NCBI GenBank assembly: GCA_044869275.1
Contig: JBIOXB010000005.1
Location: 1-44,968, forward strand
Source: a bacterium
GTDB taxonomy: Bacteria; Zhuqueibacterota; Zhuqueibacteria; Zhuqueibacterales; Zhuqueibacteraceae
Direction: 5' to 3'
Length of the DNA stretch: 44,968 nucleotides
The notes beneath the pieces were generated by a model. It made no database searches and was not told the DNA's origin. It saw only the letters and a list, made by a program, of their open reading frames with translations. Shown one piece after another: positions 27,129-44,968 of the stretch; position 1 is the stretch's first letter, and each line of letters starts with the position of its first letter. A program made the position numbers and the translations under genes.

Positions 27129-28487
27129 TTATGCCTTGCCGTTGTGCGCGAGATAATCCAGCAGATCGATGCGCGTCATGATGCTCAACGGCTTGCGCTG
27201 GGCATCGACAACCACAGCCGCGTTGCTTTGCCGCAGCATCTCCTGCAACGTCGAAATCGGCGTTTGCAGGCCCACCACCGCGACCTGGCGATTCATACAC
27301 TTTGACACCAGGGCATGCCCATATCCGGCGCCCGAACCGATGAATTCCATCAAGTCCCCCTCGGAAACGATGCCCACGAGCACGCCGCCGGAGGTGACCG
27401 GCAATTGCGAAATCCCTTTGGCGCGCATGGTCTCCACCACTTGCGCCACGGTTTGCATGTCATCCGCGCACACCAGCGTCGGCCGCTTCGCGTCCTTGCT
27501 CAAAATATCTTGCACGCGGCCCGGCATGGGTTTGCTTTCGAAAAAGCCATTGTCGCGCATCCATTTGTCGTCGACGAATTTGGTCATGTAGTTGCGCACG
27601 CCGTCGGGCAAAACGACGACACAGTTCTGTCCGGCGTTCAGCTTCGGCGCTTTTTGCAGCGCCGCATACAAAACGGAGCCGCTCGAGCCGCCCACCAGCA
27701 AGCCTTCTTCGCGAATCAATCTGCGCGCGAGCAAAAACGAAGCCTGGTCCGTGGTTTTCACCCATTCGTCCACGACGCCGCGATCCAAAACTTCGGGAAT
27801 GAAATCGTAGCCAATGCCTTCCACTTTGTAAGTGCCGACTTCATTTCCTCCACCGAGAATCGAGCCAACCGGGTCGGCGCCGACGATCACGCAATTGGGG
27901 CAGGCCTTTTTGATGCGCCTGGCCACGCCCGTGATCGATCCGCCCGTGCCCGCGCCCATCACCACCATATCGACTTTGCCCTCGAGGTCGTCCAAAATTT
28001 CCTGCGCGGTTTCATCATGATGAACTTTGGGATTATTCGGATTGGAATACTGATCGAGAATATGCGCATTCGGCAATTCGGATTGCAACCGCCGCGCGAC
28101 GCTGAGGTGGCTTTCCGGCGAATCAAACGCCGCTTCGGTGGGCGTGCGAATGATTTCTGCGCCCAGAGCCTCGAGCACGACCTGTTTCTCGCGGCTCATT
28201 TTTTCTGGCATGGTGATGATCACGCGATAGCCGCGCACGGCGCCCGCCAGCGCAATCCCAATTCCGGTGTTGCCGCTGGTCGGCTCGATCAGAGTATCGC
28301 CCGGCCGGATACGGCCCTCGCGCTCCGCTGCCTCGACCATCGACTTTCCGATGCGATCTTTCAAAGAACCACCGGGGTTGAGATACTCGCATTTGCCAAA
28401 AAGATTGCAAGGCAGAGCCGTACCGACGCGATGCAATCTCACCATCGGCGTTCTGCCGATGGCTTGGAGGATGGATTCTAAAACCAT
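27129..28487 (-). CDS. Cystathionine beta-synthase (PLP enzyme with C-terminal CBS pair)
   Basis: KCEYLNPGGSLKDRIG, EPTSGNTGIG, GAGTGGS, YKVEGIGYDFIP, PDGVRNYMTKF.DD.WM, plus two CBS domains. Confidence 0.93.
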   Translation of the reverse strand: MVLESILQAIGRTPMVRLHRVGTALPCNLFGKCEYLNPGGSLKDRIGKSMVEAAEREGRIRPGDTLIEPTSGNTGIGIALAGAVRGYRVIITMPEKMSREKQVVLEALGAEIIRTPTEAAFDSPESHLSVARRLQSELPNAHILDQYSNPNNPKVHHDETAQEILDDLEGKVDMVVMGAGTGGSITGVARRIKKACPNCVIVGADPVGSILGGGNEVGTYKVEGIGYDFIPEVLDRGVVDEWVKTTDQASFLLARRLIREEGLLVGGSSGSVLYAALQKAPKLNAGQNCVVVLPDGVRNYMTKFVDDKWMRDNGFFESKPMPGRVQDILSKDAKRPTLVCADDMQTVAQVVETMRAKGISQLPVTSGGVLVGIVSEGDLMEFIGSGAGYGHALVSKCMNRQVAVVGLQTPISTLQEMLRQSNAAVVVDAQRKPLSIMTRIDLLDYLAHNGKA

Positions 28488-28543
28488 GATGTGACCTCGC
28501 AGATGACGTCCAAAATTTCAAATAAATTCAAACAACAGACCGG

Positions 28544-29221
28544 TCAAGCAGTTTTGTTTGAAGCAGTTTTGCAAATCTCTTCGATACAATCATAAAGCTG
28601 TTTAAAGTGCTTGCAGCGCAGTAGTTCGGAAACACGGAGCGAAGGAAGCAGATTCAACAGATGATCCGGCGTATAAATCATGCCGCATTGCTCAAAGAGA
28701 TTCTTGAGCAATAGCTTTGGATTTTCAAGTTTCTCGGGTTCATTTTCACGTTTCGCTTTGTTCATAGCACCGAGATATTCGTTCAGTTTTTGATCATCTG
28801 CCAAAATCCAAGCTTCGATGGCCTGAACCGCGAACATGATATGAACACGAGAAAACTCCTGCTCTCCGATTTTTTTGAGGATTTTGTTCTCAATTTGACG
28901 CCTAAGGCCTCTGATTTTATTGCTGTCGCTGGTGTCCGCGTCTCGCATCGTGATGAAGTAAACTTCGAACTCATCGCGGCGATGTCGAAATGACTCAAAG
29001 GTGTTTTTGACGAGTGGAGCGAGCTTTTTCATAAACTCGTCTTTGCCGTTAAAACCACGTGGCTCAACCTCCACCAGCCCATTTTTGATCGCTTCAATGT
29101 TATTACGCAAAAGTTCCATGAGGGCTCGCGCATCGACACTGTATTGCCTGGCTGACTTCGCTGGCTTGGTGGCCGCCCACCGCAGGCTTTCGGAACATAA
29201 AATTATTCTTTGCTTCACCAT
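28544..29221 (-). CDS. DUF4276/RloB-like (TOPRIM-like) protein
   Basis: LCSE near the N-terminus, RDAD (DxD), AVQAIEAWILAD, EPEKLENPK; ATG overlaps the ATPase stop. Confidence 0.7.
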   Translation of the reverse strand: MVKQRIILCSESLRWAATKPAKSARQYSVDARALMELLRNNIEAIKNGLVEVEPRGFNGKDEFMKKLAPLVKNTFESFRHRRDEFEVYFITMRDADTSDSNKIRGLRRQIENKILKKIGEQEFSRVHIMFAVQAIEAWILADDQKLNEYLGAMNKAKRENEPEKLENPKLLLKNLFEQCGMIYTPDHLLNLLPSLRVSELLRCKHFKQLYDCIEEICKTASNKTA

Positions 29222-30381
29222 CGCGATTCCAATTCCCCCATAAGCCAAAGCTCACGTGTGTCAAAATCTTCCAACCACAATCCCAAAGCACCTTTCGTCG
29301 AAAAACGCCTCATTTCCGTCGCGCCGCGATATTGCTGCAAAATCACGATTTCATCGGGATCGAATAGCGATACAAAATCAGGGTTGTGCGTGGTGGCAAT
29401 AATCTGAGTTCTTTGCGCGGCCTCTTTGATCATATCTGACAAGAATCCTATCATCATTGGATTTAATTTCGCATCGGGCTCGTCGATTCCAATCAATGCC
29501 GGCGGATTCGGATTCTTCAAAATGGCAACGAGGCACAAAAATTTCAAGGTCCCGTCTGAAAGCTGGGTAACACTTGAAACCCTTCCGTTCTTATCCTCCC
29601 AACGAATCAAAAGCTCTCCTTGATTATTGCTCGGAAACGAAATCTGAGCAAAATCGTCAAATACAACTCTCAATAATGAATTGAGCCGTTCCAAAAATTG
29701 TGGTTGGGTTTGCGAAAGCTGATGCAACACGCCCACCATATTGCCGCCATCCTCATCCAAAATCGTTTCGCCCTTTGGAACTCTGGGCGTTCGAACCGGT
29801 GACCAGATTTCGGTGTGAATGCGGTCGTAGATTTTGATTTCTGACACCTTCCTGGCAAAATCATAAACTCGATCATCGTAGTCCCGATTGGGATCATCCA
29901 ATAAACTGCTTAAACCAGTATAACCATTGTTCGGAGAGTAAGAGGTATTGCGCCATTGACCATTCTTATAAAAGGACACTCCATTTTTTTCAAGATCAAG
30001 TTCAAAGATAATTTGATTGAATTCGTCGAAGAGAAGTTTCTCTTGCCGGATACGACCCGGTTTCGAATTTGTAGCCTCAATTTCGATAGAATAATGAAGT
30101 GCTTGAATTATCAAATCGATCTTGAATTGTTGCGCTCCATAATGAGCGACACTCTCAGCACCTCCTCTTTTTATTACCGCAGCCTGCCAGCCTCTCCATT
30201 CGTTGCCAGAGTCGTCTTTCAGGATATGTTTGGGGAAGGTGTCCCGCAAAAACGCGAACACATCCAAAAAATTACTCTTGCCGGAATTGTTCGCGCCGAT
30301 CAAGATATTGACGGGCTTGAGCTCAAAATCAGAAAGCGTTTTGATGCTCTTGTAGTTTTCGATGCTGATCTTTTGGATCAT
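29215..30381 (-). CDS. ABC/AAA_21-type ATPase
   Basis: ISIENYKSI, IGANNSGKSN Walker A, LSDGT signature, IDEPD Walker B, TTHNP; start trimmed to MIQKI at 30381. Confidence 0.88.
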   Translation of the reverse strand: MIQKISIENYKSIKTLSDFELKPVNILIGANNSGKSNFLDVFAFLRDTFPKHILKDDSGNEWRGWQAAVIKRGGAESVAHYGAQQFKIDLIIQALHYSIEIEATNSKPGRIRQEKLLFDEFNQIIFELDLEKNGVSFYKNGQWRNTSYSPNNGYTGLSSLLDDPNRDYDDRVYDFARKVSEIKIYDRIHTEIWSPVRTPRVPKGETILDEDGGNMVGVLHQLSQTQPQFLERLNSLLRVVFDDFAQISFPSNNQGELLIRWEDKNGRVSSVTQLSDGTLKFLCLVAILKNPNPPALIGIDEPDAKLNPMMIGFLSDMIKEAAQRTQIIATTHNPDFVSLFDPDEIVILQQYRGATEMRRFSTKGALGLWLEDFDTRELWLMGELESRW

Positions 30382-30575
30382 GGCAATATCCAACACGGTC
30401 TTATAGAATGAAAAGCTTCCCCATTTTCGGCACTTTTCCAGGTATTCAAAAAGAATCTTCCAGCATGACATGCGGGGGTGACGACGCTATGTACACCCAA
30501 GAACAACGCCTTAAGAAAAGAAAATTGCAGGTAATTTGAAAGAAATTTATGTATCTTGTTTATGCGTTCAGGCGC

Positions 30576-31280
30576 ATGAAAATGAAAGCCTTTCTCACAG
30601 CCTATTGGCGACACCTCATCAATCTGACGTATCAAGTCGAGCCGGCATGTCTCGCCGCGCATGTCCCTTCCGGATTGGAATTGGACTTGTGGCAAGGGCG
30701 AGCGCATGTCAGCCTGGTCGCTTTTGAGTTTTTGCAGACCAAAGTGAAGGGCGTCAAAATTCCGTTGCATGCCGATTTTCCCGAAATCAATCTGCGTTAC
30801 TACGTGCGCTGGCGGGAAAAAAGAGGCGTGATGTTTCTGCGCGAATTTGTGCCGAAGCAATGCCTCGCGCTGGTGGCAAACAAATTCTACCACGAACCCT
30901 ATCAAGCCCTGGCGATGTCGTGCCAGACGCGAGACCTCTGCGAGCGCATGCACATTCAATATCGTGTGCGCCAGCGCGAGGAGAACTTCACCATCTCCCT
31001 GGTGGCCGAAACCGCTTCATTTGTGCCGGCAATCACCAGCGTGGAACATCATTTCAAGGAGCATGAGCTCGGCTTTGGCAAAGACAAAGCTGGGAACACG
31101 CTTTACTATCGTGTCGAACATCCGATTTGGGAAATTCATCCCATTCAAGAATGCCGGTTGCATCTGGATTTTGGCAAGCTGTACGGCGAGCATTGGGCAT
31201 TCTTGAATGCACAACAACCGGTGTGCGCTCTGGTCGCTAAAGGTTCCTGGGTCAACGTCTTTCCTCCACAAAAACTATGA
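30576..31280 (+). CDS. DUF2071 (YqjF-like) protein
   Basis: FLTAYWRHL..TY.V.P..L..HVPSGLELD, VSLVAFEF, FPEINLRYYV, YYRVEHP.W. Confidence 0.82.
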   Translation: MKMKAFLTAYWRHLINLTYQVEPACLAAHVPSGLELDLWQGRAHVSLVAFEFLQTKVKGVKIPLHADFPEINLRYYVRWREKRGVMFLREFVPKQCLALVANKFYHEPYQALAMSCQTRDLCERMHIQYRVRQREENFTISLVAETASFVPAITSVEHHFKEHELGFGKDKAGNTLYYRVEHPIWEIHPIQECRLHLDFGKLYGEHWAFLNAQQPVCALVAKGSWVNVFPPQKL

Positions 31281-34890: not shown

Positions 34891-35011
34891 TCAGATTGTG
34901 TGAAAACATGGGAATGCCGCACCCTGAGCTTGTCGACGGGTGCTAAGTTCAAAAAATCCGGCTTCGACAAGCTCAGCCGGCGTTGAAACCAAGCGTTTTC
35001 ACACAGCCTGA
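34891..35011. mobile_element. Putative MITE (~121 bp) containing a REP-like hairpin
   Basis: Terminal inverted repeats tcagattgtgtgaaaac / gttttcacacagcctga (15/17 match); internal ctgagcttgtcga...tcgacaagctcag palindrome; partial second copy at 25.8 kb. Confidence 0.6.
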
Positions 35012-35292
35012 ATCTTGTGACGCACTGGCGCGATACTCAGCTCTACCAAGATCTCGCAACGGCGGGATGACAAGATAGGAGTTGTTTGAAAAGGGATGGG
35101 CTTAGCGGGTCGCTCTCCTCGTTCAGCGCAAAAAGCTAGATAATCCTCCACTGACTCTGCAAAGGCATTTTTCAGCTCATCCTCAGATTTTCCCTGAAAA
35201 GTAATGACATCGCGCGTATTGATCACTTCGCCATGAAAGAGATTGGCGTCTGCGTCAAACTCCACACGCGCGAGATAGCTTTTGTATTCCAT
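34999..35292 (-). CDS. hicB: HicB-family antitoxin, C-terminally altered, orphan
   Basis: MEYKSYLARVEFD.DANLFHGEVINTRDVITFQG.S.DEL..AF.ESVEDYL.FC.ERGE.P.KP; the usual SG.F..R RHH tail is absent; no hicA adjacent. Confidence 0.8.
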   Translation of the reverse strand: MEYKSYLARVEFDADANLFHGEVINTRDVITFQGKSEDELKNAFAESVEDYLAFCAERGERPAKPIPFQTTPILSSRRCEILVELSIAPVRHKIQAV

Positions 35293-35525
35293 AAGAGATA
35301 ACATTTGCGGTCCTGCTTTAGCTTGACCATTTCACATTCAGGATCATAATCTCACCAAGGGAGAAAAATGCAGGACACGAAGAACATTGCGCAGGTGCAC
35401 CGCGAGCCCAAATTCTCTATCCGCAGATTTCACGGATTACGCAGACAAAGCCTCTGTGTGAATCAGCGGATAGTGTGACATTGTCAAGTCAAAACCCAGG
35501 TCGATGAAAATCCCGAAAGTCGCGT

Positions 35526-36296
35526 TTATCCCTCCCCCCCCGGTTCCAATACCCTCGCCAGCCATTTCCGAAAGCTCCGCCACACGCTTGGGCGCGGCGG
35601 GCGCGCGGCAGGCCGGCGCTTGGCATAACTTGAACCCGGGGACGGGCGGCGATAGTCGGGCGCGCGGTTGACCGTGACTTCGGGCGTGTACTCCATGCTC
35701 ATGCGCGTTTCCACCACGCGGTGGGGGCAGCGATTGCTGTTGCCGCCGCGGAAAAATCCCATGGTGCCGCGAATGGGATCCACCACCATGGCGATCTGCC
35801 ACTCCTGATTATAATAGCGCTTCTGGTTCAAGCGGTCGGTGTTGGACATGAAGATGCCGAAATTCGGGTGGGAATGATACCAGCCGATCTTGCGGATGCG
35901 GCCGTTGCTGCGGTCGCGAATGCGATCGACTTCATCGTTGATGCGCTGGAATTCTTCGCGCGAGACTTCCACCGAGGCAAAATCCGAATGCGCGTATTCC
36001 GCCGACACGGAATCCTGCAAATAAATCCAGGTGAGATCGAAGTCTTCATCGAGATAAGCGTTGCCCAGCAGTATGCCAAAGCATTCGTAGCGCGGGTCCA
36101 TGCGCGCGTGGCTCACGATGCGTTCGACGGCCTGGCTGTCGGCGTAAACGATGTAGCGATTCGGACCGTGGCTGCGCGACCAGTCCGGCGGGATGCGCCG
36201 AGGGTGCGCTTGATGCACACGAACTTCTTTGATGCGAAACCGCTCCTGCGGCTGCACCATGCGATGGGGAGGTTTGCTCACGTCTCTCGCGCTCAC
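35526..36296 (-). CDS. JAB/MPN+ (JAMM) metalloprotease, putative deubiquitinase
   Basis: ECFGILLG (catalytic Glu) and IGWYHSHPNFGIFMSNTD (HxH-x7-S-x2-D), AMVVDP; Rpn11/CSN5-like. Confidence 0.92.
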   Translation of the reverse strand: MSARDVSKPPHRMVQPQERFRIKEVRVHQAHPRRIPPDWSRSHGPNRYIVYADSQAVERIVSHARMDPRYECFGILLGNAYLDEDFDLTWIYLQDSVSAEYAHSDFASVEVSREEFQRINDEVDRIRDRSNGRIRKIGWYHSHPNFGIFMSNTDRLNQKRYYNQEWQIAMVVDPIRGTMGFFRGGNSNRCPHRVVETRMSMEYTPEVTVNRAPDYRRPSPGSSYAKRRPAARPPRPSVWRSFRKWLARVLEPGGEG

Positions 36297-36314: not shown

Positions 36315-36788
36315 TTAATATTCCAGCACCAAGTCCGGCAACGGCGTGTTGTCGATGGGCAGCTGTTTGCTGTTGCCTTTGTACCAATCCAATGCCACGG
36401 TATTGGCCGGGCTTTTCACGTTGATGAGATAAGGTTGAAATTGAATGTATTTCGCGATGCGCAAACAAAATGCCGCGAGGCCTTCGTCGGGTGAATAGCC
36501 GCCGACGCACACCACGCCGTTGACGAAAACGTGCGGGTGAAACAAAATCGGCCGCGAGGTGAATTTCGCCAGGGGGGCGCGGTCGGGATATTCCGGCAAT
36601 AGCTTGATCACGACGGTGTGCGAATCGCGCAGGGTTTCCGGGCCAATCAGGCCGCGCAGATTGAAATCCACGACGTAAATCTCCGGCGGCGTGCGGCGAT
36701 CCGCCGCTTCCCACTCGATCAAATCGCTTTGCAGCGCCTGCATGGCTTGATAATCATGCTCCAAACGTACGGTTCGGGACGTTCTCAT
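36315..36788 (-). CDS. Ubiquitin-conjugating enzyme E2 (UBC fold)
   Basis: RLEHDY first helix, LPEYPDRAP...F, FHPHVFVNGVVC (HPN-like + catalytic Cys), SPAN..A..WY. Confidence 0.88.
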   Translation of the reverse strand: MRTSRTVRLEHDYQAMQALQSDLIEWEAADRRTPPEIYVVDFNLRGLIGPETLRDSHTVVIKLLPEYPDRAPLAKFTSRPILFHPHVFVNGVVCVGGYSPDEGLAAFCLRIAKYIQFQPYLINVKSPANTVALDWYKGNSKQLPIDNTPLPDLVLEY

Positions 36789-36929: not shown

Positions 36930-37196
36930 TCAAAGGCCGCCGCGTTGCACCACGGCGACACGGACCTGGTCCCCATCTTGCGAGTTGATTTGGGAAAGGG
37001 TCTGGTTTTCGCCCAGCTCCCCGCGTCCCTTCACCGTCAAGCCGTACTCTTCGTTGTTGTTGAGCAGGGGCGGAATGAAGCCGGCCAGCACCAAATTATC
37101 GATGATCTGTTCCCGCGTCATATCGCGTGACATATCAACATCCATCTCCGAGTCGTCACTGACGTTGATGAATGTCAGATTGATGATGTCTGCCAT
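36930..37196 (-). CDS. Ubiquitin-like (beta-grasp, YukD/EsaB-like) protein ending RGG-L
   Basis: 88 aa; INLTF...MDVDM..DMT..QIID.L; L.ENQTLSQ...QDGDQVRV (cf. ubiquitin L.D..TL.D..I.....L.L); C-terminus QRGGL; RBS ggaagg. Confidence 0.82.
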   Translation of the reverse strand: MADIINLTFINVSDDSEMDVDMSRDMTREQIIDNLVLAGFIPPLLNNNEEYGLTVKGRGELGENQTLSQINSQDGDQVRVAVVQRGGL

Positions 37197-37436: not shown

Positions 37437-38723
37437 TTATGGTGAAACCCTGTCCGCGGCCGGCAGGCGCTTCCGTGCTCGGCTCAAGCCCGGCAAGGTT
37501 ATTTCTTCATCTCGTGAAAATTCGTAATCCAACGCCCGGCCCTGCTGGTCATGTGCTTGCAACACTACCAGGCGCGGGAAGCCCAAATCGTGCAAGGTCA
37601 AATTCAAAATGGCCTCGCGATAGTCGCCCATGTCCGGGCTCATCACGTCCCAGCTATCCCCCACCATCATCAGCTGCAAGCTCGCACGGTCGGCGATGAT
37701 CTTACAATTTTGGCATTGCACTTGCTCGTGCGATAAACGAAAGATCGGCTGCATGAGCGCCGTTTCCTGGTTGCAATTGCCGCAAAAAAGATGCGACACA
37801 AAGCTGCTGGGAAACTTGACCACGGGTTCTGCCACGCCCGCTTGCTCCAAAGCGGCAAGACAGGCACGCAGCGTCGTGGTGGTGACGGCGCCTTCGAGCA
37901 CCGCAACCTCCGGAAGCGGGCGCATGTCTTCGCATTCACAGCCTTGCCGGCGCAAAATCGGGGCCACTTCAAAATAAGGCTTGGCGCCGCCGCCGTCATA
38001 TTGCAGGCGCACCCCGGTGTCCGGCAGGCGGCCGTGCAACAATTTGACGGCCTGCTCCACTTGCAGCGCAGCGATGATCGCCGAGGTCACTTGCACGGTG
38101 GCCATGCGGCCTTCGGAATAGTGCTTCCGCATGATTTGAAAGCAGGAGTCGTATCTGCCGCCGCTCGCCGCGCGCTCGCGCTTGGTCGTGGTGCAATTGA
38201 AACAGCAATCGAACGGCGGCGCGAACACATAGACGCTGCCCGCCAGGCCGCGAATGCCGCCGTCGATAAAGGGCTTGCCCGTCAGCAGGCAGGCACGATT
38301 GACCGCGAGCCGCGCTTCGAGATTATCGAGACAGCCGAGCACCAAATCCATGCGGCGATAGAGGCCCAGCCCCGCTTCCCACACGACGTCGCCGTCGAGC
38401 GCTTCCACCACGGCAGAAGGCTCAACGCATAATTCTTGCGCGCGCTGCGCGGCAATAACCGCCTTGCGTTTTCCCAAATCACTTTGCCGGAACAGCGCGG
38501 TGCGGCTCAAATTCGAGATTTCGATATGATCGAAATCGACGATCAACATATAACCCAGGCCCAACAACGCCAGGTTCTTCGCCACTTCATTACCCAAAGC
38601 TCCGGCACCCACCACCATTATCCTGGCGTGACGCAGGCGCTCCTGGCTCCACCAATCGAGGCGTTCCTGCCGGTCGGTGGCCTTGGGCGTGTGCCGGCGC
38701 GAGCTTTTGATTTGAAAGGTCAT
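37437..38723 (-). CDS. ThiF-family E1 activating enzyme with Zn-binding extension
   Basis: VVGAGALGNEVAKNL, DFDHIEISNLSR, GCLDNLEARL, CCFNC...RYDSC (candidate catalytic Cys), CECE, CGNC, CQNC. Confidence 0.92.
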   Translation of the reverse strand: MTFQIKSSRRHTPKATDRQERLDWWSQERLRHARIMVVGAGALGNEVAKNLALLGLGYMLIVDFDHIEISNLSRTALFRQSDLGKRKAVIAAQRAQELCVEPSAVVEALDGDVVWEAGLGLYRRMDLVLGCLDNLEARLAVNRACLLTGKPFIDGGIRGLAGSVYVFAPPFDCCFNCTTTKRERAASGGRYDSCFQIMRKHYSEGRMATVQVTSAIIAALQVEQAVKLLHGRLPDTGVRLQYDGGGAKPYFEVAPILRRQGCECEDMRPLPEVAVLEGAVTTTTLRACLAALEQAGVAEPVVKFPSSFVSHLFCGNCNQETALMQPIFRLSHEQVQCQNCKIIADRASLQLMMVGDSWDVMSPDMGDYREAILNLTLHDLGFPRLVVLQAHDQQGRALDYEFSRDEEITLPGLSRARKRLPAADRVSP

Positions 38724-38746: not shown

Positions 38747-39274
38747 CTAACTCACCCTTCGGGCTTTGCGCGACCGGCAGCGCAGGCAGCCACGCAACCG
38801 TTTGACTTGGTACCAGCACGTGGCGTGATACAACTCATCACAATCCGGCATGCTGCAACGCACCCAGCCCGGCAGCATGATGCGATCTTTCAAACTCAAC
38901 AAACGCGATTGCACGATCGGAATAAATTGAAAAAGCACGGCCGCGAGCGCGAAGGTCACTTCCAAAAAAATGTAACGCAGCCAGTAACTTTTGTTTTGCA
39001 GCACGCGCAGCCAGTAGCCTCTGCGCCGGAAATAGGGATCCTCGTCGATGGCATGCTTGCAGTACGGGCAAATTTTTTGGTCGCGCGCGCGCCGGACGTA
39101 TCGCGGCAGCCGGGGATGCGCCCCAAAAATCTCCCAGGGCAAATGTCCTGAGCGCTCGGGTTCGTGCGCGCCTGCGGCCGAAGCAGCGGCAGGTGACAGT
39201 CTCGTTGCGGTTGTTGACCCCATGCGGCCTACTTCAACCCTATCTACAAAACTCATGAAGAGCTGTCGGTTCAT
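38747..39274 (-). CDS. RING-like Zn-finger protein with internal hydrophobic segment (candidate E3)
   Basis: CPYC...[hydrophobic insert]...VRCSMPDCDELYHATCW.......GCLRC gives a C4HC3 ligand set like prokaryotic RING family 1; start uncertain. Confidence 0.68.
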   Translation of the reverse strand: MNRQLFMSFVDRVEVGRMGSTTATRLSPAAASAAGAHEPERSGHLPWEIFGAHPRLPRYVRRARDQKICPYCKHAIDEDPYFRRRGYWLRVLQNKSYWLRYIFLEVTFALAAVLFQFIPIVQSRLLSLKDRIMLPGWVRCSMPDCDELYHATCWYQVKRLRGCLRCRSRKARRVS

Positions 39275-39393: not shown

Positions 39394-39505
39394 GGTCGTG
39401 TAATCGCCATATTGAGTCATAATTACCGACTATGGAGCGATTACGCAGGGCAATATGAAGGAATTTTTGCGGGGAGATAAGCGCAAGTTTACAAAATCTT
39501 CATAA

Positions 39506-42370
39506 TCAAAAATAGTGCTCTTTGCACAATTTGATGCCACACATTTTCGCCCACAAGCCCAAGGGCTCTCCGCAAACCAAGCATGTTCCCTTGGGATGCT
39601 GCTTGCGGCGGCTGGAAGTCGAGCGGCTCTCGGTGGAAAAAGTGCGCGCCGTGGTGGTCGTGCGCCCGGTCTTGCGCGTACGCGTGGTGCCGTTGGCAGT
39701 GCGTGGCTCGGTCTCGGTCTCGGGCAGGGAAAGCGGCGCGGTTTCACGCAAACGCGTGGAGCGGCGCGTGGCCGCGTGTAATTCACGCGCGGATTCGGCC
39801 GGCGGAGGCGTTTGAAACCTCTGTTGCGGTGGCGATGCGCCTTCAAGAGTTTGATCTGCGGCAGCCGCCAGAGGCGAAGCAAAATCGGCGGATCGAGTTT
39901 CCGGCGCTGGTTTTGGTGCAGGTGCGGGACCGTGTGCTGCCGTTGCCGTAAAATGTTCCGCACGCGTGCCCTTCGCAGCTGCAACGCGGGTTGAGGCGCG
40001 CGGGCCAAAGCCCTTTTCGGGAGCTGGCGGCTCGGCTTCCACTCTGGTTTGAGTGCGCGATGAAGGCACGCCAGTGGCTTCGGTGACCCATCCCGCTTTG
40101 CGCTGCGGCTTCGCGGTTGCGGGTGGCTGGCTTTTCTGCTGCAGCTGTTCATAAGCCTCACGCGTCATCACCATGCGCCCCCAAAACCGCAAGCTGCCGG
40201 TTTCATCGCCGGTCACCAAGGCCGTGCCGTCGGGATTGAAAGCGCTGCAGGTGAGATTGCCGGCGATGACGTGCATCAACTTGCCGTCCTGCACGTTCCA
40301 CAATTTCACGCTGCGATCTTGAAAATCATTGGCTGCCAGCACCGTGCCGTCCGGGCTGAAGCGCAGGGAAGTGACGCCGCTGGAAAATGGTTTCAACTCA
40401 TGCACCATTTTCCCTTGCGCGATGTCCCACAATTGCACGGCAATGCCGTGATTGATCGTGGCCAGAGCTTTTTGATCCGGGCTGAGCGTCAACCAGCTCA
40501 CGCTGCCCGAACGTTCCGGCAAGGCATGAGCCAGACGGCCGCTGAGGGTTTCATAGAAGCGCACGCTGCCGTCATTCGCGCCGGTGATGAGCAGGCGATC
40601 GTCCGCGCTGAAAGCCACGCAATTGGCCAGGCCCGAGCAGCCAAAAAACGTGTGCAGGATCGCTCCTCGGGTCAAGTCCCACAAAATCGCGGAATTGTCG
40701 GGGCTGCCCGTGGCGAGCAGCCGCCCGTCGTGGCTGAAGACGACGGTATCCACGCTGCTTTTGTGCGCGGTGAAAGTTTGAATCAGCGTACCGTCGTGAG
40801 TGTCCCACAAAGTGGTTTGCCGGTTGTAGCCGCCAATGGCGAGAATGGTGTCGTCGGGGCTGAAGCACAAACATTGCACGGTGTTGCCCGGATCCATCAA
40901 GGTGGTGTAGCAGCGGCCGTGTTTCACGTCCCACAGCTTGACGCCGCCGCGCTTATCGACGCTCGCCAAAATCTGGCTGTCGTGGCTGAACGCCAGCTCG
41001 ACGATGGTGTCTTCGTGCTCTTTGAGCGTGAACAGCAATTGATTGGTGCTCAAATTCCACAAACGCACGGTGTGATCCGCGCCGCCGCTGGCCAGGATGG
41101 CTTCGTCCGGGCTGAAGGCCAGAGCGCTCACACGGCCCAGATGCGCGGACAAGGCGTGCAGCGCAAATTTGTGCACCAGCAACGAATGAAAAATCTGCTC
41201 GGCCTGATGCAGCAACTGCATGGCGTCGCGATTGTCGAAATAGGTGTTGCGCTCGAGGCATTGCTTCGCCTCCACCAGCAATTGGTTGATCTGCGAAGCG
41301 GAGACTTTGGCGTCGTTGGTCGAGTAGATCCACTCCGAGAGCAATCGTTCAACGTGACGCACTCTCTGCTGCACATCCCCGCCGCTTTCGGTGCGCATGC
41401 GCACGAAGAGGTCGTTGATCTCATGGCGCACAAAGCGGAAATCACGGTCGCCGTCGGCCTTGATGCAATAATTCTCATCCAGCGCCACGGCCTGCTCCAG
41501 GCTCTGTGCCGCCGCGTGGCCGTCGCCCAGCAGGGCGGCGTATTTCGCATGATGGTAATGGCTCTCCGAAAGCTGCGGGCTGGCATCGCGCGCCTGTTGC
41601 GCCAAATCCCGGGAGTGGCGCAACAGCCGGGAGGCTTCGTCCTTGTTCCCGTTCAATTGATGATCGTTGGCGAGCGCATAATTCGCGATCGAGGCATGCA
41701 GCAAGGCTTCGCCCAGAAAACGATTCGCGTCGGGCAGGCGCGGCACTTCGGCTTTGGCATAGCGCGCCGCCGCCATCAGATGCTGCTCGGCTTTGCCCAG
41801 ATTCACCACGTTGCAATCCTGGGTGACGCCGTACAAATACAGTTTGCCGATCATGAGCTGGGTCATGAAATTGGCGTCATCGCGCTTGGCGGCTTCCAGA
41901 AACGCCTCCAATGCCTTGTCCGGCAGGCCCTTTTGCAGGCGGTCGCAGGCAATTTGATAAAACTCGCGTGCCTGCGTCATGGTCGGGCTTTGCAATGTGG
42001 CATGCACGGCTTCCATCTGCTGCAGCATGCCCATCATCGCCTGGCTCTGCAGCTGCAACTGCTCGATCATCAAGGCGATGTTGTACTCGAACGTCGAGCG
42101 CAACGATTCGATGGCGGTGGTCGTTTCGTTGATCGCTTCCGTCACGTCCGACAAGCCGCGGTCCAGCGTGCCGTTCATGGCGTCGAAGCCGGAGCCAAAC
42201 TTCTTGGTCATGGCTTCGCGGCTGGCGATGATCTCGCGTGTCTGCGCGGTGATGGCAATGTGCTGCTTTTGGCTGCCGCGGCGAATCTGGCCCTGGATAT
42301 CCTTGACAAAGGAGGAAGCTTGCAGATATTGCTGCCAGTTCAGTTTCGAGCCCAAATAAAAAGTTGCCAT
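39506..42370 (-). CDS. Coiled-coil + TPR-like + WD40 (8 repeats) + low-complexity linker + C-terminal Zn-ribbon protein
   Basis: Eight ..H...V..LAFSPD...LA.G..D..V.LWD-type repeats; helical TPR-like region; C-terminal CLVC...C.EH. Confidence 0.88.
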   Translation of the reverse strand: MATFYLGSKLNWQQYLQASSFVKDIQGQIRRGSQKQHIAITAQTREIIASREAMTKKFGSGFDAMNGTLDRGLSDVTEAINETTTAIESLRSTFEYNIALMIEQLQLQSQAMMGMLQQMEAVHATLQSPTMTQAREFYQIACDRLQKGLPDKALEAFLEAAKRDDANFMTQLMIGKLYLYGVTQDCNVVNLGKAEQHLMAAARYAKAEVPRLPDANRFLGEALLHASIANYALANDHQLNGNKDEASRLLRHSRDLAQQARDASPQLSESHYHHAKYAALLGDGHAAAQSLEQAVALDENYCIKADGDRDFRFVRHEINDLFVRMRTESGGDVQQRVRHVERLLSEWIYSTNDAKVSASQINQLLVEAKQCLERNTYFDNRDAMQLLHQAEQIFHSLLVHKFALHALSAHLGRVSALAFSPDEAILASGGADHTVRLWNLSTNQLLFTLKEHEDTIVELAFSHDSQILASVDKRGGVKLWDVKHGRCYTTLMDPGNTVQCLCFSPDDTILAIGGYNRQTTLWDTHDGTLIQTFTAHKSSVDTVVFSHDGRLLATGSPDNSAILWDLTRGAILHTFFGCSGLANCVAFSADDRLLITGANDGSVRFYETLSGRLAHALPERSGSVSWLTLSPDQKALATINHGIAVQLWDIAQGKMVHELKPFSSGVTSLRFSPDGTVLAANDFQDRSVKLWNVQDGKLMHVIAGNLTCSAFNPDGTALVTGDETGSLRFWGRMVMTREAYEQLQQKSQPPATAKPQRKAGWVTEATGVPSSRTQTRVEAEPPAPEKGFGPRASTRVAAAKGTRAEHFTATAAHGPAPAPKPAPETRSADFASPLAAAADQTLEGASPPQQRFQTPPPAESARELHAATRRSTRLRETAPLSLPETETEPRTANGTTRTRKTGRTTTTARTFSTESRSTSSRRKQHPKGTCLVCGEPLGLWAKMCGIKLCKEHYF

Positions 42371-44713: not shown

Positions 44714-44968
44714 TAGGATCACTAGATCACCGGATCGCTGCCTCACAGGATCACAGGATCACAGGATCACAGGATCACAGGATCACTGGATCACTGGATC
44801 ACTGGATCACTGGATCACTGGATTACTGGATCACTGGATTACTGGATTACTGGAGTATTGGAGCGCGGGCCTTTAGAGTTTCTTCTGCCCTACCAATCCC
44901 CCAGTCTCCCAATCCCCCAGTCTCCCAGTCTCCCAGTCCCCCAGTCCCCCAGTCTCCCAGTCCCCCAG
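44714..44968. repeat. Opposed 8-mer tandem arrays (CWGGATYA... / TCYCCCAG...)
   Basis: caggatca/ctggatca/ctggatta tandem units (44714-44862), then tcccccag/tctcccag units to the window end. Confidence 0.9.

Follow-up and report, generated by a model that had tools for sequence, protein, structure and literature searches.

Prokaryotic tri-ligase systems of ubiquitin-like proteins (Ubl) with a Prok-RING_1 protein (PF14446) were reportedly predicted by Burroughs, Iyer and Aravind in 2011, and bacterial operons combining an E1, an E2 and a RING E3 were predicted long ago. Bacterial members of PF14446 are described as carrying transmembrane helices. The MARCH (RING-CH) ligases have the C4HC3 ligand order, and the transmembrane helices of MARCH/ERAD ligases lie outside the RING. 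The available part of PMC7159879 describes operons in which JAB, E1, prokaryotic RING E3, Ubl and E2 are each encoded separately, and that of PMC11354881 describes prokaryotic RINGs of C4HC3 form with a canonical loop of 9-39 residues between ligands 2 and 3. In the available parts of the respective papers, the tested cascades are either archaeal, with loop 4 and loop 7 contacts between E2 and RING tested by mutation (PMC5654768), or have no E3 (Bil, PMC11601596; Bub, PMC11601603). In the open-access literature, we found no bacterial RING that had been tested at the bench together with its own bacterial tag, no RING with an amphipathic or monotopic insert, and no mention of ubiquitin in the present lineage.

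The window analysed here is the whole stretch of 44,968 nucleotides at positions 1 to 44,968 of contig JBIOXB010000005.1, from a bacterium of the family Zhuqueibacteraceae. It contains a five-gene operon, and the following features of the operon and its upstream side are discussed in the text.

39506..42370, minus strand: TPR/WD40 protein with C-terminal zinc finger, 954 aa, upstream neighbour in two genera
39411..39467, minus strand: conserved non-coding element 5' of the RING gene, candidate operon promoter, aligned in 6/6 loci of two genera
38747..39274, minus strand: candidate E3 with a RING-like C4HC3 finger, 175 aa counted from M1, disordered over the N-terminal ~50 aa
39059..39070, minus strand: first zinc knuckle C69-C72 with the invariant Y71, which touches the E2 in the model
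38876..39031, minus strand: insert, residues 82-133, with helices 87-95, 97-114 and 119-131, basic and aromatic, the least conserved part of the domain
38912..38986, minus strand: hydrophobic stretch, residues 97-121, with outgoing helix, tip and turn proline P119
38777..38857, minus strand: ligands 3-8 (C140, C145, H150, C153, C163, C166) and central helix 151-160
37437..38723, minus strand: E1 of the ThiF family, 428 aa (PF00899, E 1.6e-50)
36930..37196, minus strand: ubiquitin-like protein (Ubl), 88 aa, weakly YukD-like (PF08817, E 0.0013, under cut-off)
36315..36788, minus strand: E2 of UBC fold, 157 aa, with HPH motif, C94 and loop-7 SPD
35526..36296, minus strand: JAB/JAMM peptidase, 256 aa (PF14464, E 2.4e-10), HSH-x7-S-x2-D in 11/11
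35547..35582, minus strand: Trp-led amphipathic basic helix at the JAB C-terminus, residues 239-250, candidate for membrane targeting

The order RING-E1-Ubl-E2-JAB, with RING as the first gene, was found in 11 fully read loci including the window (L001-L004 are G158, G156, G157 and G155 and were counted once among the loci; L005 and L010 were dropped from 10 loci as short spurious matches). Like the Prok-RING_1 systems, this locus is an operon in which JAB, E1, E2, Ubl and a C4HC3 RING are encoded by separate genes, with a Trp directly after ligand 6 and a YukD-like Ubl. Unlike them, it has a loop 1 of 57-67 residues, where two PF14446 proteins of the same class have 12-13, and a spacing of x4 instead of x2 between ligands 3 and 4; no PF14446 score was obtained, no gene of the operon is transmembrane, and the five-gene form is fixed and inherited across three genera. 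The loop of 57-67 residues (33/33 relatives) also lies outside the canonical 9-39 given in the available part of PMC11354881.

Transmembrane helices were found in both PF14446 members examined. In another family of the class, locus L038 (9627-15517 of G064:C77) encodes an E1, an unknown gene, a transmembrane JAB, a multi-TM FHA protein, a Prok-RING_1 protein and an E2; its Prok-RING_1 has a zinc ribbon, a 13-residue loop and two TM helices (KD 2.2 and 1.9), and its JAB has a transmembrane segment of KD 3.11. At L044 (50-772 of G119:C336), a Prok-RING_1 is fused to an RDD membrane domain, and the E2 of that genome is on another contig.

With the Ub/E1/E2/small RING/Rpn11 operon of Caldiarchaeum subterraneum, as far as described in the available part of PMC5654768, our locus shares a minimal five-gene cascade, a tail after GG and RING-E2 contacts via E2 loops 4 and 7, which are modelled here. 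That system is archaeal, with a C3H2C3 RING-H2 without insert, a true ubiquitin and a conserved linchpin Arg, whereas the present one is bacterial, with a C4HC3 finger and an acidic one-lysine Ubl, and no 20S proteasome was found. The Bil and Bub operons likewise combine Ubl, E1, E2 and JAB in one bacterial operon (available parts of PMC11601596 and PMC11601603). Bil has no E3 and an E1 with two adenylation domains (IAD-AAD), whereas here we found a RING and one ThiF domain; Bub works through Tyr/Ser oxyesters and BubE, whereas the E2 here is a Cys E2 of canonical UBC type. Unlike Bil/Bub, the distribution of this operon is not patchy like that of a defence island. A BilD match was partial only (E 4.4e-7, residues 42-153).

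The E1 has a single ThiF domain, and a CxxC motif together with a later conserved Cys (candidate catalytic residue) was found in 11/11 operons. The Ubl is acidic and ends with RGG-L, one residue beyond RGG, and K56 is its sole lysine. One lysine and a tail of 1-10 residues after RGG were found in 9/9 rows, the pattern having missed 2 of the 11 loci. Between the genera g1 and g3 the Ubl is 93-97% identical (69% in g2), against 65-81% for E1, 59-85% for JAB and 57-83% for RING, and judging from these alignments the Ubl appears to show ubiquitin-like ultraconservation. Its relatives at ~70% are labelled candidate division KSB1, to which the operon's lineage probably belongs. The E2 profile matched 46 solved eukaryotic E2 sequences (best E 4.2e-7); C94 is invariant, and the RING-binding motifs of loop 4 and loop 7 are kept.

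The amphipathic tail of JAB, which follows a disordered linker, was found in 13/13 complete copies (moment 0.68-0.87), and one more copy is cut by the contig end. Compared with 5221 crude six-frame ORF ends, the tail of the window JAB ranks 7. The C-terminal membrane-targeting helices of FtsA and MinD are likewise terminal, amphipathic, aromatic and basic and follow a disordered linker; we claim no homology, and the JAB tail is considered a candidate membrane binder. The JAB of genus g2 also starts with an Arg/Phe-rich amphipathic stretch. The best 19-residue Kyte-Doolittle mean (KD19) is at most 1.44 for all operon genes other than RING.

Of the 167 genomes of the phylum, 10 carry the RING gene, and these belong to a single family: 2/2, 5/5 and 3/4 genomes in three genera and 0/8 in a fourth. 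Close orthologs of the E2 were found in 11 genomes, the same 10 and one 79%-complete genome. No match was found in the 50,697 phage and 72,556 plasmid records scanned and the GC of the operon is flat, so that, as far as these records go, a mobile or phage origin was rejected; the operon looks like a single-copy, vertically inherited unit rather than a patchy defence island. The only proteasome-family gene found in the genome (94% complete) is HslV-like (179 aa, one PF00227 match), and no 20S proteasome to which the pathway could be coupled was found there.

The 954-aa upstream neighbour is composed of a helical/TPR N-terminal part, a WD40 propeller, a long disordered linker and a conserved C-terminal Cys/His finger, and the finger is ~70% identical where the linker is lost. 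The protein was found in 17/18 other genomes of the family and in one outside it. Its gene is located after pilO/secretin genes in g1 and g3 and on other contigs in g2, and it is present in 7/8 genomes of the operon-less genus. Because it is unlinked in the third genus and present in the operon-less one, we do not count the WD40 gene among the required components, and a role as obligatory substrate receptor is not supported.

The RING protein has the ligand spacing C-x2-C-x67-C-x4-C-x4-H-x2-C-W-x8-C-x2-C, and only nine residues follow the finger at the C-terminus. The preliminary description, made from the window alone, had claimed a C4HC3 finger split by an insert of ~65 residues; with a spacer of 67 residues between ligands 2 and 3 and eight ligands from C69 to C166, this is borne out. 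Judging from the start codons of relatives, translation probably begins at M7 (39256) or M1; the closest relatives retain M7 but not M18. In a six-frame search of the 6.67 Mb genome, we found the six-ligand C-terminal pattern once and a loose C4HC3 pattern twice. The relatives were 11 proteins from the sequence search and five representatives (four of them new), and cluster members and genome loci enlarged the set to 33 distinct insert sequences. All eight ligands are conserved in 33/33, with identical spacing on the C-terminal side, as the proposed comparison of Cys/His in homologs required for a real finger. Because the six-ligand pattern is unique in the genome and the eight ligands are kept in all 33 distinct relatives, the motif is not a matter of chance; a frame artefact was rejected as well. 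The linchpin position after ligand 8 is variable (R167 in the window RING; R/K in 17, H in 11, G in 4 and Q in 1 of the 33), whereas R165 is invariant.

The PF14446 cut-off of 29.1 bits was never reached: six of 12 RING members matched, with a best E of 0.56, and the search of the own genome at E 0.1 gave no match. A profile comparison with two true PF14446 members gave 24.6% over 15 columns. The insert splits the PF14446 motif, and therefore the failed cut-off lowers membership, not likeness. The NCBIfam and PADLOC models gave no family for the RING protein, and the solved-structure sequences searched with the RING profile gave 0 matches. From the failed cut-off and the lack of an NCBIfam or PADLOC match, we take the protein to be a functional counterpart of the Prok-RING_1 E3s that falls outside the scored family. 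ESM Atlas matches were obtained at 0.86 only and were left out of the analysis.

The insert was present in 33/33 relatives, with a spacer of 57, 66 or 67 residues between ligands 2 and 3, and absent from the two PF14446 proteins mentioned above. The hydrophobic stretch of ~25 aa described earlier was confirmed as residues 97-121, with a KD19 of 2.14; the PilO anchor in the same window reaches 1.75. Since the modelled insert consists of helices 87-95, 97-114 and 119-131, the stretch takes in the outgoing helix and the tip as well as the turn proline. It is interrupted by R100, E105, Q116 and P119, and no face of helix 101-118 is polar (Eisenberg moment 0.10-0.15). Among 17 representatives of less than 85% identity, invariant columns were 0/52 in the insert, 11/29 and 14/42 in the flanking cores, and the mean conservation was 0.54 against 0.75-0.76 in the core, so that character is kept and not identity. 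Positions Q93, N94, R100 and E105 of the long form are well kept (13/17), as in a protein interface. The turn proline is at the same place in 31/33 relatives, the 10 residues before it are flanked on both sides by segments whose net charge is positive in 31/33 and never negative, and the tip is never acidic on balance. The tip KD10 exceeds 0.4 in 31/33, the remaining tips being barely hydrophobic (-0.06 and 0.23). Insert length and hydrophobicity differ by clade. The first helix of the insert has a Trp-x-x-hydrophobic pattern resembling that of the JAB tail helix.

KD19 is at least 1.6 in 13/33 relatives and below 1.2 in 20/33; these 20 have no transmembrane-like segment, and their best 19-residue segment contains up to four charges. 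Uncharged runs extend to 17-23 residues in the clade of the window RING and to 6-7 in others with the same operon. In the tree of the relatives, the hydrophobic label requires three changes, and the 10 most span-like sequences are the window RING's own group (support 91/88, not starred). Since 20/33 are too polar and both flanks are basic, a membrane span is not a property of the family. Even in the clade of the window RING a span is unlikely, as it would have basic flanks on both sides and place six zinc ligands outside the cytoplasm.

The AlphaFold2 model of the RING protein (16 rows) had a mean pLDDT of 71.7, with values below 50 at residues 7-50, ~90 in both halves of the finger and 70-85 in the insert, which forms three helices. 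The model of a short-insert relative (23 rows, pLDDT 77.4) contained two helices, at its residues 64-84 and 86-98; all its top 50 structural rows are helical hairpins, and it superposes on the hairpins of UvrB C-terminal, McsA and Rabenosyn-5 with Z 5.3-6.2, which is a common arrangement. The VIA list for the window RING was led by RING E3s, with Rbx1 (Z 4.2, rmsd 3.4, 71 aligned) ahead of Rbx2, RNF4, Pirh2 and APC11 (Z 3.6-3.9), but these matches are weak and tied with unrelated helical proteins. Foldseek gave no E < 0.001 for the window RING or for the short-insert model. In the models the RING core appears to fold normally, and the hairpin in loop 1 to leave and rejoin the finger.

The proposed co-fold with the E2 was made with RING residues 51-175, the E2 of the operon and two zincs. 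It gave an ipSAE of 0.70, against 0.00 for the best of three controls; the runs agreed in at least 85% of contacts, and the partner pLDDT was at least 79. The mark used was reached by 116/157 solved and 2/215 mismatched pairs, counts that hold only roughly here, and as RING-E2 is a textbook pair, the co-fold may pass from likeness to solved RING-E2 complexes. RING residues 68-74, 80-81, 130-131 and 150-165 are predicted to lie on helix 1 and residues 68-69 and 99-103 of the E2, which is the usual RING-E2 face; the insert contributes residues 130-131 only. These are the same E2 loop 4 and loop 7 contacts as reported for the archaeal RING in the available part of PMC5654768. The model shows a split finger compatible with a normal E2-binding face, both halves being used.

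On account of the operon and the E2 co-fold, we consider 38747..39274 very likely to encode the RING E3 of a bacterial ubiquitin-like pathway. Our main reading, to which we give a probability of about 55%, is a RING-type E3 of a complete five-gene operon in which the hairpin is a surface (monotopic) membrane anchor. The preliminary description had called the protein a membrane-tethered bacterial E3 and offered a re-entrant or monotopic segment as one of its options. The E3 part is supported; the tether is inferred, and the re-entrant or monotopic option fits best with the polar relatives, the basic flanks and the hairpin models. A surface anchor is the best reading because the JAB tail is amphipathic in 13/13 copies and because a classical operon of the same class has a transmembrane RING and JAB. 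In the simplest account, both enzymes are held by surface anchors in this lineage and by spans in others.

According to this main reading, the JAB peptidase would trim the Ubl precursor to its GG end, and the E1 would adenylate the Ubl and hand it through a cysteine thioester to C94 of the E2. The RING would fold constitutively around two zincs in the standard cross-brace order (C69/C72/H150/C153 and C140/C145/C163/C166), bind E2~Ubl via knuckle 1 (Y71-H74), the central helix and knuckle 4, and promote transfer to a substrate lysine; JAB would also remove the tag from the substrate. The insert would be a helical hairpin grown from loop 1, off the E2 face, whose hydrophobic proline-capped tip and basic, Trp/Tyr-rich flanks may be immersed in the cytoplasmic leaflet of the inner membrane and take over the role that transmembrane helices have in classical Prok-RING_1 proteins. 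The tail helix of JAB could take the tag remover to the same membrane surface. The targets would most likely be membrane-proximal cytoplasmic proteins, tagged once and not in proteasome-directed chains, and the operon could be considered a stably inherited regulatory pathway. Sequence, conservation and gene order were observed directly, as was the missing transmembrane character of most relatives; the fold and the E2 interface in this scheme are those predicted by the models, and we infer its catalysis, zinc geometry, membrane binding and targets. With an HslV-like gene as the only proteasome-family gene found and a Ubl with a single lysine, tagging once to a regulatory end is probably likelier than ERAD-like chains.

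The preliminary description had also drawn a loose analogy with MARCH/ERAD ligases, which holds in part: the C4HC3 order and a probable action at the membrane are shared. Here the hydrophobic element lies inside loop 1 and does not span, and no proteasome or retrotranslocation partner was found; the ERAD side of the analogy is weak because a 20S proteasome was not found. What is unusual here is the helical hairpin in loop 1 of a RING and the compact operon without predicted spans, the general operon type being already predicted. Loop 1 of a RING appears to tolerate a helical hairpin of 42-52 residues beside the E2 site, and the operon suggests that ligase and peptidase alike have moved from transmembrane anchors to the membrane surface. 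With five genes, no predicted span and relatives with polar inserts, the system should be unusually easy to reconstitute. We might speculate further, as a rather unlikely extension, that the hairpin responds to the packing or charge of the lipids and determines how high and at what angle the bound E2 is held, giving a membrane-state-dependent ligase, with JAB recruited by its own helix and the near-invariant tag as a housekeeping signal. If true, this would be a transmembrane-free bacterial ubiquitination switch at the membrane surface, with a housekeeping signal like that of eukaryotic ubiquitin.

Other readings of the same data were weighed against the surface anchor. The E3 may be the same and yet soluble, with the hairpin as a protein-binding arm for homodimerisation or for recognition of a substrate or adaptor, which we regard as possible but doubtful. 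The superposition on soluble dimerisation or partner-binding hairpins points to such an arm, as do the lack of any other obvious substrate-binding domain, the absence of longer fused RING forms among 7999 candidates (weak evidence), the partly conserved polar positions of the long insert and the weakly hydrophobic tips of some relatives. Amphipathic helices bind proteins too, and the Trp-led insert helix and the JAB tail could then dock on a shared partner. An arm of this kind is hard to reconcile with the complete lack of invariant insert columns despite a highly conserved E2 and Ubl, with an insert that varies by clade in length and hydrophobicity, or with a helix 101-118 that is hydrophobic all round. 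The related operons are membrane-anchored, and the genomic distribution of the WD40 neighbour, unlinked in g2 and common in the operon-less genus, also counts against it.

A true single span, which would put the zinc ligands on opposite membrane faces, and a conditional RING assembly acting as a membrane-state switch had both been raised in the preliminary description. We consider a span, or a spanning/surface switch with the RING assembled in one membrane state only, highly improbable, even though the clade of the window RING reaches KD19 1.7-2.1 and an uncharged run of 17-23 residues (10/33 sequences). The 20 polar relatives cannot span although their operons are otherwise identical, basic flanks occur on both sides, and the six ligands together with a very basic C-terminal part would sit outside the cytoplasm; with the hairpin models these points led us to reject a single span for the insert. 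The models fold both finger halves together with high confidence, touching the same E2 face. As the hairpin is predicted to leave and return to the RING and both halves to bind the E2, the topological paradox and the conditional switch are unsupported. It is also quite improbable that the protein is not a ligase at all, such as a zinc protein of PHD-like or structural type that recognises a peptide or serves as a scaffold for the pathway while the E2 acts alone as in Bil. C4HC3 is common to PHD fingers, the best Pfam rows of the RING protein are PHD-like (all far under cut-off, E 0.043), and the linchpin position is variable. The hallmark of PHD fingers is C4HC3 with a Trp two residues before ligand 7, and this Trp was found in 0/23 aligned RING rows. 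Bil operons function without an E3 (available part of PMC11601596), but the predicted RING-E2 interface is canonical, the E2 keeps its loop 4 and loop 7 motifs for RING binding, and the linkage to the E1 is strict.

The conserved element at 39411-39467 is likely the promoter or operator of the operon itself, judging from the aligned loci. Its pattern was found in two more g3 genomes and in none of the g2 loci scanned. The best sigma-70 site (39393-39366) lies outside the element and is not conserved, and the sigma-70 scan was near chance (5 against 2.4 +/- 1.8).

Directly past the operon, a weakly HicB-like gene (UPF0150) is located at 34999-35304 on the minus strand, with a frameshifted relative in L001. 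At the end of the window (~44780-44968), short tandem peptide-like repeats, SQDHRITG-like and then PQSP-like units, were found in an open frame; this is probably a non-coding repeat of the lineage. GC is 0.46-0.48 at 28001-31000, over an AAA/ABC-type ATPase gene (29215-30471), against 0.54-0.59 elsewhere, and this region is possibly a small acquired island.
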